Positions 57,155 to 63,406 of a stretch of DNA of 64,000 bases are shown here, piece by piece (the first letter of the stretch is position 1; each line of letters starts with the position of its first letter). Made by a program: the position numbers and the translations under genes. The notes under the pieces were generated by a model that saw only the letters and a program-made list of their open reading frames with translations, searched no databases and was not told where the DNA came from. Source of the stretch: a virus. The stretch spans positions 4,279 through 68,278 of IMG/VR virus record IMGVR_UViG_3300033181_000072. The stretch is one strand, 5' to 3'.

Positions 57155-57250
57155 TGCTTATCACTACAAACACTATACAGATGTTTGGCGTAATAAGCAA
57201 TAGCTAAAGTGACGAGTTTTGAAAATTCGCCATGTTCGCAGTAATAAGCA
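57155..57250. promoter_or_regulatory. Lysis-lysogeny switch operators
   Basis: GT[A/G]ATAAGCA three times (57155-64 inverted, 57190-99, 57241-50) between divergent regulators. Confidence 0.6.
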
Positions 57251-57276
57251 GGGCTGACGCGGCGTACACTTCCAGC

Positions 57277-57738
57277 ATGGAGAAGCAAACGTTCGCGGGT
57301 TATGTCCAAGCACGGCGTTGGGAGCTGAAACTGTCCCAGGACGGGCTAGCAAAGGCTGCTGGAAAGCCGATCACGAGGGGCTATCTTGGTCAGTTGGAGC
57401 GCGGTTTTATCAAGCGACCAGGGCGCGAGCATCTGGCCGCACTGGCGCGTGGTTTGGATGTGTCCGTAGAGGACCTGGTGCGAGCGATGGGCATGCTCCC
57501 TGGAGCCGCACACGAAACAGGGGTGGATGATGATTTACCACATCTGAACGACCGCGTACGGATCGGTCTTCGGCGTGCACGGACCCAGATGCCTGATGAT
57601 GACTACGAGCGCCTCGTTGCGACCATCGAGAGCCAGGTCGAGGCAGCGCTGAAGAGCGTTGAAGACGGAACGCTCGAACCTTCGGTGACATCCCGGCACG
57701 TCGATAAGATCCTCGACAAGCACCTGGGGCACCACTGA
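57277..57738 (+). CDS. XRE-family phage repressor (ImmR-like)
   Basis: RRWELKLSQDGLAKAAG...TRGYLGQLERG HTH; no S24 peptidase domain. Confidence 0.88.
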   Translation: MEKQTFAGYVQARRWELKLSQDGLAKAAGKPITRGYLGQLERGFIKRPGREHLAALARGLDVSVEDLVRAMGMLPGAAHETGVDDDLPHLNDRVRIGLRRARTQMPDDDYERLVATIESQVEAALKSVEDGTLEPSVTSRHVDKILDKHLGHH

Positions 57739-57782: not shown

Positions 57783-58241
57783 TTGGCAAAGCAACTCCGC
57801 GTGGAGATGCCGATGCCCACATCGCGCAAGTTGCGAGCGTGGCGCGACTGGCTCTGGGACTGCTTTCGCGTCGTTCTGGTTGCACCGGAACTGCCAGAGC
57901 ACTTCGACGGAACGGGCATCTTCCTTGGCAGCGAGGATTGCCGTGGGATCATCCTACTTCGCCGTGGGACAGAGCATGCTATCTGGACGTTGGTCCATGA
58001 GCTGGGGCATATCCTTACCGAGCGCTGTTATGACGTTGACGCCGCACAGGACGGGCTGCAATGGCAGACGACAGGTGACGAGCAGGCCGCCGACGAGTTC
58101 GCCTGTTGTTTCATCATTGATGAATACGAGCTACTGGAGTTTATGGGTGAGGGGCGAACCGTGAGACAGTTTGCACAATATCTGAAGGTTCCAGTGAGCG
58201 CAGTGCTACTCAGGTCGCGGTTGATGGGATTGATGGTGTAG
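57783..58241 (+). CDS. immA: ImmA/IrrE-family metallopeptidase (anti-repressor)
   Basis: TLVHELGH zinc motif, EQAADEFA; adjacent to repressor. Confidence 0.88.
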   Translation: MAKQLRVEMPMPTSRKLRAWRDWLWDCFRVVLVAPELPEHFDGTGIFLGSEDCRGIILLRRGTEHAIWTLVHELGHILTERCYDVDAAQDGLQWQTTGDEQAADEFACCFIIDEYELLEFMGEGRTVRQFAQYLKVPVSAVLLRSRLMGLMV

Positions 58242-58250
58242 CACGTCCCA

Positions 58251-58290
58251 GAGCGGTTGATTGTGGCCCGATTTGGGCAGTTGTAGGAGG
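58251..58290 (+). repeat. 40-bp cassette-leader repeat, copy a
   Basis: GAGCGGTTGAT-TGTG-GCCCGATTTGGGC-AGTTGTAGGAGG, 6 nt before ATG 58297. Confidence 0.9.
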
Positions 58291-58296
58291 CACGTC

Positions 58297-58560
58297 ATGG
58301 AATATCTGATGCTCGCCGTATTCCTCGGTCTTATCCCCGCTTTCATCGCTCATAACAAGGGGAGAAGCTTCTTCGGTTGGTGGGTGTATGGTGCGTTGCT
58401 GTTTATCGTCGCTCTGCCCCACGCAATCCTCATGCGGCCCGATACGCTACGGTTGGAAAGGGAACAGATTGACGCGGGAGGCCGGAAGTGCCCGCATTGC
58501 GCTGAGTTTATCAAGCAAGAGGCAATTGTATGCCGGTACTGTGGGCGTGATGTGCCATAG
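58297..58560 (+). CDS. Membrane protein with C-terminal zinc ribbon
   Basis: Two TM segments, KGRSFFGWW, CPHC...CRYC. Confidence 0.75.
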   Translation: MEYLMLAVFLGLIPAFIAHNKGRSFFGWWVYGALLFIVALPHAILMRPDTLRLEREQIDAGGRKCPHCAEFIKQEAIVCRYCGRDVP

Positions 58561-58604
58561 GTGATGCCGATGTCACAGCAGCAGATGTGCCGGAAGCGGA
58601 GGTT

Positions 58605-59045
58605 ATGATGCGCTGGTTCTGTGCGATTGCGGTTGTACTACTGGCAGGGTGTGGAGCAGCCGATTTCGGACTAGTAGCGCCGACGCCGACGGGGAGTACC
58701 ACGGCAACCGCATTACCGGCCACGTCCGTCCCGCAGCTCACGAGCGTGCCGACCGCAGAGGAGAAGATCCTGACAGAGATGTCGGGCGACGGCAATGGCC
58801 AGACCGCACTGTTCACGGTCACTGGGCCATGGGCCATCAGCTATACCTACGATTGCACAGGTCGCAGTGGAACCATCGTGTCGCTGGACGTCTGGGATGT
58901 TGCGGGCAAACGCATACCGGAGAACTTCCACCAGGGCACGATGAAGCCGGGCACCGGTGCAGATGTCGTACACCTGGCCACGCCAGGCACTTGGCTCGTG
59001 CATGTGGGATCGATTTGTCGCTGGCACTTGACGGTACGCGGGTGA
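58605..59045 (+). CDS. Lipoprotein
   Basis: Lipobox LLAGC, Pro/Thr linker, beta-sandwich with two Cys. Confidence 0.75.
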   Translation: MMRWFCAIAVVLLAGCGAADFGLVAPTPTGSTTATALPATSVPQLTSVPTAEEKILTEMSGDGNGQTALFTVTGPWAISYTYDCTGRSGTIVSLDVWDVAGKRIPENFHQGTMKPGTGADVVHLATPGTWLVHVGSICRWHLTVRG

Positions 59046-59075
59046 CGGGGGCCCGGTTTGGGCAGGTGTAGGAGT
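59036..59075 (+). repeat. 40-bp cassette-leader repeat, copy b
   Basis: ACGCGGGTGAC-GGGG-GCCCGGTTTGGGC-AGGTGTAGGAGT; overlaps upstream stop. Confidence 0.88.
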
Positions 59076-59088
59076 GGAGGTTGTGGGC

Positions 59089-59868
59089 ATGGTACGTCTG
59101 TTGTGGGCACTGGTTTTGGTTCTGTCGCTTTTGGTACCTGCTGCGTCGGTGTCAGCTGAAAGTTCGTGTCAGTTCATTCTGGGCTTCAGTATGCTGCACG
59201 ATCTCATCCCAAATACGGTGGGGGACTGCGTAGATAACGAAGCACACAATCCACTGAATGGTGACGGTCTTCAACACACCTCAAGAGGGCTCATGGTGTG
59301 GCGCAAAGACGATAACCGCATGGCCTTTACTGACGGCGCTACGTCATGGATCATCGGTCAGACCGGGGTTATCTCTCGCCCCAATGGAGTGCGTTACACA
59401 TGGGAGCCGAACCCGGAGAAACTTCCCGTGACTGATGGGCAAGTGACGATGCTTGTCGGTAGCTGCGCCGTACCCAAGAGTGATCCGAACGGTCCCGTAA
59501 CGGTCAGTACGTTGGTGTTCTTGGATGAAGCATCGTTCGCTCAGCCTGCACGGCGGTGCCTAACGCTGATACCTGATATCACGACCGATCGTTTATATGC
59601 CTACCTCAATCAGAACGGTGCGGGCTTCGGTGGCACCAATCTGTGTCGCTGCCAGAACATCCCGGCCTCGCGATCAGTATTTGGCAATCCGACGGCAACT
59701 GGCTGGGTTACTCACGTGGTGCAACAGTGGGGCACGAACACGTTCAGTCGTTTTGACGTAGCAATTGTGCAAAGTGATCGCGGGTGGCTCATTGATGACA
59801 TTACCTGTACGAGGGGCGGGCCCGAAACATCGGTATACGCAGGAAGTCATTCCTCCTGCACACAATGA
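59089..59868 (+). CDS. Secreted protein, paralog of 61826-62647 (shared N-terminal domain)
   Basis: Signal peptide; CQFILGF...GDGLQHT..GLMVWRK.DN..AFTDG domain. Confidence 0.75.
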   Translation: MVRLLWALVLVLSLLVPAASVSAESSCQFILGFSMLHDLIPNTVGDCVDNEAHNPLNGDGLQHTSRGLMVWRKDDNRMAFTDGATSWIIGQTGVISRPNGVRYTWEPNPEKLPVTDGQVTMLVGSCAVPKSDPNGPVTVSTLVFLDEASFAQPARRCLTLIPDITTDRLYAYLNQNGAGFGGTNLCRCQNIPASRSVFGNPTATGWVTHVVQQWGTNTFSRFDVAIVQSDRGWLIDDITCTRGGPETSVYAGSHSSCTQ

Positions 59869-60323
59869 GCGGGCCGACCTCTACCCTAAAGCCGCCCAAG
59901 CCCGCAGTAAAGCCTTTGACCGCAGGCCAGGGTTGTGGGTGCCTGCTGCTGATCGTCGCGATCGTCGCCGGTATCCTCTGGCTGATCGACCGGACGAACA
60001 GCAGTACCACGTCAACCGCCCCGACCGGTGCACCGACCGCGCAGTCGAACGAATCCATGGCCCTGCAAATCGTGGCGGCATCTGGCGACAGTCCAGCGGC
60101 CTACAAGCAGCAACTTGATCTCATCGCTCCCCACTGTGACGAGCCGCGCGACCAGGTTGCGGGGATGCCCGTGGTAATCCAAAAGACGCTCAAGGACCGT
60201 GGCGTGAACGAATCCATGCTCTCCATCATCACAAACGGCGGGATGGCGGTGAAGGCAATTAGTGGGACGACTCGGTGTGCTGACATCTTTGCTGCGTACG
60301 CCGCGCTACGGATACCAAGGTAG
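59865..60323 (+). CDS. Single-pass membrane protein
   Basis: GCGCLLLIVAIVAGILW TM; ATGA-coupled. Confidence 0.65.
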   Translation: MSGPTSTLKPPKPAVKPLTAGQGCGCLLLIVAIVAGILWLIDRTNSSTTSTAPTGAPTAQSNESMALQIVAASGDSPAAYKQQLDLIAPHCDEPRDQVAGMPVVIQKTLKDRGVNESMLSIITNGGMAVKAISGTTRCADIFAAYAALRIPR

Positions 60324-60348
60324 TGGCGACGTGACGTTCGCCGTGCCT

Positions 60349-60388
60349 GAGCGGATGATTTGTGCCCGGTTTGGGCAACTGTAGAAGG
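60349..60388 (+). repeat. 40-bp cassette-leader repeat, copy c
   Basis: GAGCGGATGAT-TTGT-GCCCGGTTTGGGC-AACTGTAGAAGG, 7 nt before ATG 60396. Confidence 0.9.
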
Positions 60389-60395
60389 GCAAGCC

Positions 60396-61289
60396 ATGGG
60401 TAGGCGACGAGGTTCACGAGGCAGCTACAGGCGTCACTATCGTGGAGGGGGACAAGGCAATGCTTTCGGTTTCATTACGGTGCTTATGGTTGCACTGGGA
60501 GCGTTTGTAGGAGAGTTCTTTAACAAGAAGCAGTTAACGACTCATGATGCTGCGCCTCCACGATTCAAGGCACAGAGCGTTGAACCTGCACGACCTCTTG
60601 ATGATCGGGTACCGGTCGACGCGCTGCCGGTCGGTGCGCCTGATTCAATGCAATCGGCGACTGGCAGAGACGTGCCGTCGCTGGGGCGACCGTTGCCAGT
60701 TATCAACTACACACTATCGCCAGAAGAGTATGGCCGGTTCTGCCTCATCAGTAGTGCAATTGCAAAACTGAAGGAAGCTGAATGGGTGCGGTTTTCGTGG
60801 TACTACAAGGGCGAAGGGTCCACTACGAATCGCTGGCCGGTACATATACGATGTAACCAAGGAAGCGGGGAATCTGATGCCCCTGTATGGGGCATTGAGG
60901 TGGATGACGTCTTTGATTTTTACTTCTACCCTGAGGGAATATACGTGTTTGCCGGCAACAAGGGCACCGTCGTTGAGCCCAATGTCATGAATTATGTTCT
61001 GATCAGAGCAAAAGTAAGTATCTGCGAGCAGCGAATATACCTTGAGGACGCGACGGACACGGTAGAAATCGTTCGCCGAGAGCATATGTACCTTCGCCTC
61101 GACGGGCACCCTGACATGAGACATTCATACAATCCCATGGTTCCCGTAGCGCGGATAGGCGTCATCGAGATTGCGATCAACGAGCAACACATCATGCTTT
61201 TGGAGGTATCGAGCAAGGCTATTGCATTGGAGGCTGGCAGCCAGCTGGCGCAGGCACTCTCGCTGCCTACGGATGGTGAAACACCGTAG
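60396..61289 (+). CDS. Membrane-anchored hypothetical protein (DG.PD.R..N motif)
   Basis: Basic N-terminus, one TM, LDGHPDMRHSYNPMVP resembling C-termini of DUF4236-type proteins. Confidence 0.6.
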   Translation: MGRRRGSRGSYRRHYRGGGQGNAFGFITVLMVALGAFVGEFFNKKQLTTHDAAPPRFKAQSVEPARPLDDRVPVDALPVGAPDSMQSATGRDVPSLGRPLPVINYTLSPEEYGRFCLISSAIAKLKEAEWVRFSWYYKGEGSTTNRWPVHIRCNQGSGESDAPVWGIEVDDVFDFYFYPEGIYVFAGNKGTVVEPNVMNYVLIRAKVSICEQRIYLEDATDTVEIVRREHMYLRLDGHPDMRHSYNPMVPVARIGVIEIAINEQHIMLLEVSSKAIALEAGSQLAQALSLPTDGETP

Positions 61290-61320
61290 GCAGCGAGTCA
61301 GAATTGCGCGTCCCGTGTAT

Positions 61321-61360
61321 GAGCGAATGATCGCGGCTCGGTTTGGGCAGTTGTAGGAGG
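61321..61360 (+). repeat. 40-bp cassette-leader repeat, copy d
   Basis: GAGCGAATGAT-CGCG-GCTCGGTTTGGGC-AGTTGTAGGAGG. Confidence 0.9.
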
Positions 61361-61370
61361 TTGTGATGTT

Positions 61371-61814
61371 ATGGGCGACATTGAGGTTCCAGTAGTAGAC
61401 CACTACCAGCAACGTGCTGCTGAGCTCATTAACACGATTCTCCCAAATGGCCGGGGCACACTTACGTGGAACTCGCCCGCTCAGGCAAAGCAGTTATTAG
61501 GGCAAATTCGTATGGTGCAAAAAGGGCTTCGTCTGGTGAAAAAAGACATTGCTATCACGATGAAGACCATACGATCAGCGGTGACCACGCAGTCGACTAC
61601 CATGAATAGAAGCATCTTGGTAAGCGTATTCTTTGGCGTACGGGCAGCCGGTAGGGTGCGAGCGCTCAACCGCGAGGGCATCCGACAGAAGGAAATACAG
61701 ATACTGGCACCGTATCAGGCGGTGTCCCGAAGTATTGATGATGCATTACTCCGATTGGATGCTGCCAAACTCCAAATCGAAAGTAGTACACAGAACCGTT
61801 TTGGCAATCTGTAG
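61371..61814 (+). CDS. Helical hypothetical protein
   Basis: Follows repeat d SD. Confidence 0.6.
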   Translation: MGDIEVPVVDHYQQRAAELINTILPNGRGTLTWNSPAQAKQLLGQIRMVQKGLRLVKKDIAITMKTIRSAVTTQSTTMNRSILVSVFFGVRAAGRVRALNREGIRQKEIQILAPYQAVSRSIDDALLRLDAAKLQIESSTQNRFGNL

Positions 61815-61818
61815 GAGG
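61794..61818 (+). repeat. Degenerate cassette-leader repeat, copy e (3' half)
   Basis: AACCGTTTTGGCAATCTGTAGGAGG, 17/25 matches to the 3' consensus. Confidence 0.5.
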
Positions 61819-61825
61819 TGTTGTT

Positions 61826-62647
61826 ATGCGTCGGTTGTTTCTGTCCCTGGTGATAGCGGTGTCGTTGATGGTGCCGGTCGCGTCAGCATCGGCTCAGGCG
61901 GTGGGGTGTTCGTTCCAGCTTGGCTTTGCGGCACTGGCGGCAATGATTCCCGCAAAGGTGGGTGCGTGCCTAGAGAACGAGAACCACAACCCACGCAACG
62001 GTGACGGACTCCAGCACACCACTGGCGGCTTGATGGTGTGGCGGAAGTCGGACAACTGGACGGCTTTTACGGACGGTTATCACAGTTGGATCAATGGTCC
62101 GAATGGGCTGCAGCAACGACTGAATACCGAGCGCTTTGTGTGGGAGTGGACGGATAGCGGCCCGCTGGACCCGACAATCATGATTATCCCCAATGGGGGG
62201 CTGAGTGATCGCCCACCGTGCGTTGGGGGTGATCTCCTTACTTTCGGGCCTGCGTCGGCCAGTGTGGATTTCGCTGCGACCCTCCTGTCTGAATCCAGGT
62301 ATATCGGTCGCTGCATCGACTTTATAGGGCAACTCAGAGAAATCGATTCTAGAACGCCGCAAGCAACGCTGTCAGGTACGTACAGGGTAACTCTGCACTA
62401 CATCGTGGACGTTGATCTCAGTCAGATGATCGACCCAGCGCTCGCCAAGAGCGGCTGGATCCACACGAAGCCCGGGGAACTGGTCGAGGTCGTTGGTGTG
62501 CTCACCGGCGTACGCGCTGACCTCGGAGCCACCCACCTCAGCATAGCAGCCCGCCTTAGCTCGACAGGATTGATCGGGAGTGGCTGCCAATATTACGCAG
62601 TCGGGTTCGGTCCAGCAGTTCAATGCTTCGATCAGAACCAGCGGTAA
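61826..62647 (+). CDS. Secreted protein, paralog of 59089-59868 with different C-terminal domain
   Basis: Signal peptide; CSFQLGF...GDGLQHTTGGLMVWRKSDNWTAFTDG. Confidence 0.75.
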   Translation: MRRLFLSLVIAVSLMVPVASASAQAVGCSFQLGFAALAAMIPAKVGACLENENHNPRNGDGLQHTTGGLMVWRKSDNWTAFTDGYHSWINGPNGLQQRLNTERFVWEWTDSGPLDPTIMIIPNGGLSDRPPCVGGDLLTFGPASASVDFAATLLSESRYIGRCIDFIGQLREIDSRTPQATLSGTYRVTLHYIVDVDLSQMIDPALAKSGWIHTKPGELVEVVGVLTGVRADLGATHLSIAARLSSTGLIGSGCQYYAVGFGPAVQCFDQNQR

Positions 62648-62701
62648 AGGAGTGATACGTTTATTCATCCTGTTTTGATTTGTGCCTTGATTTCAGTCCC
62701 G

Positions 62702-62741
62702 GTGCGTTTGATCGTCGCCCAGTTTGGGCAGGTGCCGTGGG
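62702..62741 (+). repeat. 40-bp cassette-leader repeat, copy f (SD lost, no gene follows)
   Basis: GTGCGTTTGAT-CGTC-GCCCAGTTTGGGC-AGGTGCCGTGGG. Confidence 0.8.
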
Positions 62742-62983
62742 CTAGGGGCAGGCGGTAGTGTGAGCGAGGCGCGAAGTGAGGGTGCGGCGGATAGCAAATG
62801 CTGACCTAGCCATGACGCGGTACTGCGAGACAAGGGTGTCATGTCCAAAGTCGCCAACTTTATCGGGGCGCAGGGGAGGTAGGGGGGGAGGGAGACGAGC
62901 CGATATGACTCCCATCACCAGAGATTTGGATTTTCCGTACACAATAATCGCAAAATTGCTATAATACGCTGACGGAGAGTTGC

Positions 62984-63406
62984 ATGGCGAAGAGGGGTGC
63001 TGGCGGTGACATATTCGTTGGAGAGCTTCGGCCAGCACGAAGCGCGTACAGAATTCAGACCACGCCTACCTTTGAGGATGGCCTGAAAGAGCTTGGACGA
63101 TCGGATGCGGAACGTCTATATGCCAAAATTCAACAATTCGAGCGCCATTGGCGTGGAGGACTTTCCGAACCCGACTTGACACGGATGTTTGACTACAAGG
63201 CGCTGAACGGTTCGGAATACAAGAAATGGGGTGTTCGCCAACTGACGCTACTTAGGAATTTCCGGGTCATCTTGACCGATATACCGTCCCTCAATCCGCC
63301 CATCATGTACTACGCATGGACCTTTCGCAAGACTCGGCAGAACGACAAGGTTGAAACGAACCGAGGAATGTTGATATGCAAGTCAATCCGGGAGAGATTA
63401 CTGTGA
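62984..63406 (+). CDS. RelE/HigB-like toxin
   Basis: YRIQTTPTFEDGLKEL...YKAL...FRVI...FRK pattern; TATAAT upstream; precedes HTH gene. Confidence 0.6.
   Translation: MAKRGAGGDIFVGELRPARSAYRIQTTPTFEDGLKELGRSDAERLYAKIQQFERHWRGGLSEPDLTRMFDYKALNGSEYKKWGVRQLTLLRNFRVILTDIPSLNPPIMYYAWTFRKTRQNDKVETNRGMLICKSIRERLL

Follow-up and report, generated by a model that had tools for sequence, protein, structure and literature searches.

Phage accessory genes gather in hot spots, and a dedicated short sequence that both expresses and joins them is known in few cases, such as the promoter-early stem-loops (PeSLs) of T4-type phages (PMC2839356, PMC4122927) and the SAS/ESAS elements of cluster K mycobacteriophages (PMC3203893). 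The repeat described here, ~45 nt long, lies in a window of 64,000 nucleotides (the whole stretch of DNA that was analysed, bases 4279-68278 of the 70,282-base IMG/VR virus record IMGVR_UViG_3300033181_000072), where it occurs on the + strand in five full copies and one half copy, which lie from 58.2 to 62.7 kb and separate the accessory genes of an array located between a repressor/ImmA gene pair and an integrase gene. The motif is most likely a portable signal for stopping and restarting translation, and not an integron site or a folded RNA; judged by analogy, it appears to resemble the PeSLs and SAS/ESAS in function while belonging to neither.

Like a PeSL, the repeat is a composite motif that fills the gaps of an array of small ORFan open reading frames (ORFs) and ends in a Shine-Dalgarno (SD) sequence and a start codon; several copies lie within a few kb, accompanied by degraded half copies, and they coincide with breakpoints of insertion, deletion and replacement between relatives. 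PeSLs, however, consist of a terminator stem-loop followed by a near-consensus sigma-70 promoter (~17 nt spacing), whereas here there is neither such a -10 box nor a terminator, the stem, of only 4 bp, is placed inside the motif, and the array belongs to the lysogeny block of a temperate phage. Of the features that make a PeSL, the SD and start at the 3' end, the ORFan surroundings and the association with breakpoints are thus present, while the sigma-70 boxes and the terminator are absent. Excised mini-circles between neighbouring copies, another feature of PeSLs, would leave joints, of which the contigs of four runs, where rare variants are dropped, show none. With SAS/ESAS, the repeat has in common a short, asymmetric, SD-containing sequence placed before gene starts in one orientation (3-8 nt from the start there, 5-10 nt here, a defining feature of that class), confinement to the non-structural part of a temperate siphophage, an upstream stop codon that sometimes falls inside the element, an inverted repeat just upstream and absence from the host genome at large. 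The two sequences are unrelated (GGGATAGGAGCCC in the mycobacteriophages); ESAS are made of 17-bp repeats with a variable spacer, in contrast to 4+4 bp at a fixed spacing here, and SAS precede conserved early genes throughout their cluster, whereas the present repeat was found at accessory cassettes only, in one narrow lineage, a chromosomal locus included, with a chloroflexotal host. The function of SAS/ESAS was still unverified in 2025. Integrons, too, have conserved repeats (attC sites) that separate cassettes of unknown function, all on one strand, in the vicinity of a gene for a tyrosine recombinase; the present array, however, lacks an IntI-type integrase, the attC structure and R''/R' core sites, and its repeat carries the SD of the next gene. 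Translational coupling through a leader peptide, as in the tap-repA system of IncFII plasmids, relies on a very short ORF whose stop codon lies at the ribosome-binding site of the next gene. The repeat shares this arrangement; it differs in that the mini-ORF is putative, that no regulatory RNA partner is present and that the element recurs before unrelated genes.

The copies are given below, g2 to g8 being the seven accessory genes of the array.

58246-58291, + strand: copy 1 (nhmmer, 40.5 bits), in the 55-nt gap between the stop of the ImmA gene (58241) and g2 (ATG 58297); its nine-codon frame, also on the + strand, runs from TTG 58257 to TAG 58286.
59031-59075, + strand: copy 2, whose TGA (59043-45) is the stop of g3 and overlaps a GTG (59042); its TAG is at 59069-71, and it precedes g4 (ATG 59089).
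60343-60389, + strand: copy 3, with a nine-codon frame from ATG 60355 to TAG 60384; it precedes g6 (ATG 60396).
61311-61360, + strand: copy 4, with a nine-codon frame from ATG 61327 to TAG 61356; it precedes g7 (ATG 61371).
61797-61818, + strand: half copy 6, the 3' half of the motif only, encoding the last codons of g7 (..NRFGNL-stop).
61812-14, + strand: the TAG of half copy 6, which is the stop of g7 and overlaps the SD of g8 (ATG 61826).
62696-62741, + strand: copy 5, limited to the 5' part and the core; it lacks TGTAG-SD and leads no gene.

Every copy sits in a gap between two same-strand ORFs or overlaps the end of the upstream gene, and the intergenic gaps, 43-81 nt long, are occupied by the motif. 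The original prediction had placed five full copies and one degenerate copy in a single orientation at these positions and nowhere else in the window; both statements hold, the second over the entire 70,282-base record, in which the core TTTGGGCA occurs five times, on the + strand of this region only, and in which a search with the 20-nt core plus SD, at up to 4 mismatches, finds only these six places. The motif is made of block A (GAGCGnnTGAT), a variable 4-nt spacer, block B (GCCCGGTTTGGGCAG) and block C (nTGTAG leading into GGAGG). The consensus proposed for all five full copies is right overall, except that copy 2 has ACGCGGGTGAC in place of GAGCG..TGAT in block A and that copy 5 lacks the TGTAGGAGG part of block C; the half copy lacks block A. 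Similarly, most copies lead one or two genes, as had been predicted, while copy 5 leads none. In the copies that keep the 3' block, TGTAGGAGG, a strong SD, stands 5-10 nt before the start codon, and this sequence is found on the + strand at 58-62 kb only; the inverted 4+4 core is the sole part found in all full-length copies. An 11-nt fragment of the 5' part of the motif, identical to part of copy 3 (TGATTTGTGCC), lies at 62676-62686, 20 nt upstream of copy 5, and looks like the scar of an earlier junction.

Nine copies are known, six in the prophage and three in two other loci, some with shared ancestry. The core block is nearly invariant among the nine and the neighbouring positions vary; pairwise identity ranges from 60 to 86%, conservation is block-wise and the longest shared exact runs are only 7-19 nt, so that the core looks selected and not recently copied. 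This block-wise pattern argues for constraint and against recent copying.

Stop codons are part of what is conserved: in five copies, the TGA of the 5' block or the TAG overlapping the SD is the actual stop of the upstream gene. The TGA of block A ends g3 and the gene-3-like ORFs of loci L023 and L020 (see below), and the TAG of block C, which overlaps the SD of the next gene, ends g7 and a zinc-ribbon ORF of L023 (Pfam, 30.2 bits, above threshold). The base before the TGA is T, G or A in 7/7 free-standing copies, which yields an NTG start and a frame of nine codons up to the TAG, with the consensus NTG-I-x-A-R-F-G-Q-L-TAG; read in this frame, the copies give ..ERLIVARFGQL, ..ERMICARFGQL, ..ERMIAARFGQL, ..RVTGARFGQV and ..RVMMARFGQL. 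Many of the differences in this frame are synonymous (four Arg codons; Ala, Gln, Ile, Pro and Leu pairs), synonymous pair differences numbering 77 in the TAG-ending frame versus 28 and 29 for the remaining frames. In the half copy, two stem pairs are altered on both sides in ways that do not restore pairing, and the codons are kept. The homologues of g7 lack an RFG tail, which suggests that g7 probably acquired its own by fusion to the motif; the tail peptide matches no Pfam or PHROG model. A Pmp3-like gene beside the chromosomal copy of locus L047 ends in ..VERLIEAMG.. in the same frame, a tail native to the Pmp3 family; the similarity to the motif is short (Smith-Waterman p ~0.005 before correction, eight gene ends having been tested), and descent of the motif from a gene end is a weak lead. 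A resemblance of the ImmA 3' end to the motif was dropped as marginal (p 0.02, one copy only).

The three copies outside the prophage were reached through the neighbourhoods of the closest homologues of the secreted protein, in two other loci of the same lineage. One copy (L020/L047) lies upstream of a secreted-protein paralogue in a locus that looks chromosomal and carries genes for resistance to chromate and copper; the other two (L023a and L023b) are on a contig of 13.7 kb (L023/L024). Where these loci align with the window, an edge of the homology falls inside the motif at three junctions: window 58770-59065 matches L023 2674-2969, window 59050-59366 matches L023 1373-1689, and window 61796-62146 matches L020 3966-4321. 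The gene-3-like ORF of L023 is 80% identical to the window up to the G after GGGCA, beyond which an unrelated gene follows; the secreted-protein genes, in turn, match from block B onward and the DNA upstream is unrelated. In L020 and L023a the TGTAG is fixed relative to GGGCAG and the SD is displaced by 5-6 nt, while L023b retains the upstream blocks and not the SD. The chromosomal copy stands in a 650-nt gap (L047:6207-6852) in which the last codons of a gene-3-like ORF remain just upstream of the motif; this remnant suggests that the L047 cassette came from an array like that of the prophage.

Elsewhere, the motif is scarce. The chromosomal copy is the sole one in 21 kb of the host-like contig L047, and the 6.4 kb of host flank adjoining the prophage have none, so that ~27 kb of sampled host DNA hold one copy, itself associated with a cassette; the known genome-wide host repeat that was named from the start as a possible identity is therefore not what this is. 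Genes sharing the N-terminal domain of g4 and g8 are not preceded by the motif in seven other Chloroflexota lineages and three IMG/VR loci; strict and codon-degenerate patterns retrieved only chance matches and an unrelated Elusimicrobia repeat from IMG/VR, GTDB representative genomes and JGI metagenome contigs, and neither the region nor a single copy had a BLAST match among INPHARED phages. With one cassette-linked copy in the sampled host DNA and absence from these collections, the motif is neither a genome-wide host repeat nor a general promoter, and the element is confined to a narrow lineage and to gene-cassette junctions. The Elusimicrobia repeat (contigs L015-L019, e.g., L018:3520-3543) shares 24 identical nt with the motif core plus TGTAGGAG, between unrelated flanks; it matches no Rfam family and the identity is probably a coincidence.

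The reading preferred here, to which a probability of roughly 45% is given, is that the repeat is a lineage-specific, portable inter-cistronic junction and leader of ~45 nt that also serves as a joint for cassette exchange. Accessory genes of the moron type would have accumulated between the repressor/ImmA pair and the integrase, separated by the motif, and the array would be read as a single long message expressed in the lysogen. Ribosomes that finish the upstream gene, or the nine-codon relay frame, would reach a stop codon overlying the SD and then reinitiate at the next gene; because the module brings both termination on the SD and restart, any cassette carrying it would be translated wherever it lands. 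As the only sequence common to otherwise unrelated cassettes, the module would also be the point at which they are joined and swapped, recombination over short homologies being the probable route. Among the phage genes is one for a Rad52-like annealing protein, and proteins of the Rad52-like/Red-beta type act on short homologies, a minimum of 23-27 bp being reported for Red-beta (PMC3945230).

Several observations weigh against this portable junction. The exact runs shared by the copies fall short of 23-27 bp, so that the present copies would be poor recombination substrates, even for Rad52-like annealing proteins, and neither cassette variants nor joints were found in four other metagenome runs, whose contigs drop rare variants, or in five assemblies, all sequences being 100% identical. 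Translational coupling alone would not need the 30 conserved nt upstream of the SD that make up blocks A and B. The putative mini-ORF has no SD of its own, and its coding signature is not significant, since 189 of 2000 column shuffles reach the value of 77 (p ~0.09); the synonymous signal is therefore suggestive only. Finally, all six runs that hold the prophage sequence are DNA runs, and the known copies, with their partly common ancestry, number only nine. A more specific proposal, which for the moment is rather doubtful, is that the repeat acts as a relay: a translated mini-ORF (Met-Ile-x-Ala-Arg-Phe-Gly-Gln-Leu), starting on the previous stop and stopping on the next ribosome-binding site, would pass ribosomes from one cassette to the next, its peptide or codons also defining the joint of envelope cassettes between phage and host, in a manner distinct from both integrons and PeSLs.

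The serious rival is a promoter for an alternative host sigma factor of the SigB/SigF type, one of three models put forward in the original prediction; it is unlikely, and the other explanations rank below it. Each copy would then be an internal promoter, with GnnTGAT as a -35-like and GGGCAG as a -10-like element 13-14 nt apart and initiation at TGTAG, so that each cassette would bring its own promoter and SD. The two-block layout with its variable 4-nt spacer fits this proposal, as do copy 5 and L023b, which keep the upstream blocks without the SD, the fixed distance from GGGCAG to TGTAG in L020 and L023a while the SD moves by 5-6 nt, as expected of an initiation region, and the 650-nt gap of L047, where the gene needs a promoter. 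The geometry is tight, however, because the predicted start site would fall on or within the SD in copies 1-4. A consensus scan of the copies found no sigma-70 -10 box 16-19 nt from the TTGAT block (the hexamers at 17-19 nt are GTTGTA, TTGTAG and TGTAGG), while canonical promoters are at hand nearby, at 62938-62965 in the window and as TTGACA-17-TATAAC in L037; the phage encodes no sigma factor, and the match to the SigB/SigF consensus uses motifs that may not be those of this host. The array is also without terminators and therefore does not require internal promoters: three terminator-like sites were found versus 5.4 expected, a single weak one (60335-60353) overlapping the 5' edge of copy 3 and none lying at the other copies, and the same scan found no terminators flanking the individual array genes as in a moron-type unit. 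Readings as sigma-54, sigma-28 or CsrA sites were dropped by eye, their spacing being wrong. Less probable again is the proposal that the copies are non-functional stubs, the last ~13 codons and SD of an ancestral small gene (possibly Pmp3-like or a zinc ribbon) left behind by recombination at each cassette insertion or replacement. Three real ORFs (g7, the L023 zinc-ribbon ORF and the L047 Pmp3 gene) do share the frame of the motif where they cross it or a sequence like it, the differences in the nine-codon frame are mostly synonymous, and half copies exist at 61797, 62676 and L023b; yet neutral decay should be even, whereas the core block stays near-invariant next to variable positions, remnants of such a gene that extend further are not seen upstream of copies 1, 3 and 4, the prophage has no Pmp3 gene, and the Pmp3 similarity is the short and uncorrected one described above.

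The remaining explanations centre on the core and are improbable to various degrees. GCCC-N5-GGGC could be the operator of a dimeric DNA-binding protein, a helix-turn-helix (HTH) protein of phage or host that co-regulates the cassettes, an arrangement comparable to the stoperators of cluster A mycobacteriophages; the presence of the inverted core in all full-length copies, in one orientation and at gene starts, and two HTH proteins encoded beside the array are in keeping with it. This is nonetheless improbable: the half sites are just 4 bp, the conserved flanks are asymmetric, the lytic genes have no copies and the chromosomal copy has no phage regulators nearby. Even less credit is given to a dedicated integron-like system moving cassettes as circles, with the motif as its site. 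The model as first proposed is supported insofar as breakpoints relative to two other loci lie inside the motif, and a same-strand ORFan cassette array does adjoin a tyrosine recombinase gene; the integron analogy itself fails. The recombinase is an ordinary phage integrase (Pfam domains Phage_int_SAM_3 and Phage_integrase) whose nearest relatives, themselves prophage integrases, do not exceed 44% identity, and it scores 33.8 bits against a cut-off of 265 for TIGR02249 and 26.7 against 435 for NF011946. In place of the attC structure (an imperfect palindrome of 57-141 nt that bears R''/L'' and L'/R' boxes and adopts its fold as single-stranded DNA) there is only a 4-bp stem, inspection of the copies reveals no GTTRRRY/RYYYAAC pair, the motif and the integrase site have no att-like repeat in common, the core falls short of the length of known tyrosine or serine recombinase sites, and no joints were seen in the four other runs. 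Equally far-fetched is a hairpin acting next to the SD as an RNA operator or processing site. The stem had been described as five pairs with several G-U variants; it has only four G-C pairs, the variants at the fifth position lie in the loop or the closing pair, and the sole change in the stem is a C>T in copy 4 that keeps a G-U pair, the one point in favour of an RNA. No pair has changed on both sides with pairing kept, and the half copy loses 2/4 pairs while retaining the codons. Seven copies folded with their flanks do no better than shuffles (z -0.1 to +1.8, 6/7 positive), minimum-energy folds keep the hairpin inconsistently, the consensus fold has 7 pairs and no covariation, and a search of the motif against Rfam gave no match.

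The window belongs to an integrated prophage, since the same sequence is also found within 80-139 kb metagenome contigs from rock samples in which ordinary cellular genes (NYN, transketolase, PurU) lie beyond the integrase gene. The host is a rock-dwelling member of the Chloroflexota; homologues of one cassette protein, where named, are from Chloroflexota or Dehalococcoidia. The right end of the prophage comprises an early operon read leftward, with Rad52-like, HTH_17 and small genes, and a rightward block, co-directional from repressor to integrase, in the order XRE-type repressor-like gene, ImmA/M78 peptidase gene, seven accessory genes, the motif copy with no gene behind it, two genes served by a canonical promoter of their own, a 240-aa gene and the integrase gene, with host genes beyond. 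Locus searches for close relatives of the ImmA and integrase genes found none.

57232-57738, + strand: XRE-type repressor-like gene, at the head of the co-directional lysogeny block.
57783-58241, + strand: ImmA/IrrE M78 peptidase gene, heading the lysogeny block together with the repressor gene.
58297-58560, + strand: g2, membrane protein with a zinc ribbon.
58605-59045, + strand: g3, lipoprotein.
59089-59868, + strand: g4, secreted protein.
59865-60323, + strand: g5, single-pass membrane protein.
60396-61289, + strand: g6, single-pass membrane protein.
61371-61814, + strand: g7, member of a ~140-aa family of unknown function, no clear membrane segment.
61826-62647, + strand: g8, secreted paralogue of g4.
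62938-62965, + strand: canonical sigma-70-like promoter (TACACA, 16 nt, TG-n-TATAAT) ahead of the gene pair at 62984-63406 and 63376 onward.

The cassette genes had been described as unrelated and as encoding membrane, secreted or lipoproteins. The first statement is mostly true but not for g4 and g8, which share an N-terminal domain of ~100 aa, and the second is mostly true but not for g7. The GC content of the accessory genes is 0.51-0.62 (0.55-0.57 for the array) versus 0.60-0.64 in the remaining phage, which fits later acquisition. The shared N-terminal module (window 59089-59460 and 61826-62200; alignment A3) is found on >600 Chloroflexota proteins and is not covered by a Pfam family; a signal peptide leads into C-x-F-x-LGF...NPxNGDGLQ...VWRKxDNWTAFTDG, and the module is joined to diverse C-terminal partners (CAP, LysM, DUF4232, BNR, peptidases) and recurs as prophage cargo between repressor and integrase, for instance in L039. 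The g7 family is also widespread, with 267 representatives of ~140-aa proteins at E<=0.001, a conserved ..PY..IDxxLxxLDxxKLQIE end and no Pfam or PHROG family. The single homologue of g3 is in L023, where the gene-3-like domain forms one protein with a zinc ribbon and a membrane segment on its N-terminal side (L023:2347-2949, 200 aa); in the window, the zinc-ribbon and gene-3-like parts are split between two genes, g2 and g3. Behind copy 5, a gene-less, G-rich stretch of ~240 nt (62742-62983) contains the near-consensus extended -10 promoter listed above, an example of an ordinary promoter in this DNA; it is followed by a 140-aa gene and an HTH gene with overlapping ends, which resemble a toxin-antitoxin pair.

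What this locus adds to the few described sequences of its kind is a compact case from a phylum that has received little study: one and the same element occurs in a prophage and in a chromosomal locus, and breakpoints fall inside it. If the role as a relay mini-ORF or as a promoter proves true, the element would provide a simple rule by which newly acquired genes are expressed on arrival, and a sequence handle for finding lysogenic-conversion cassettes in Chloroflexota metagenomes.

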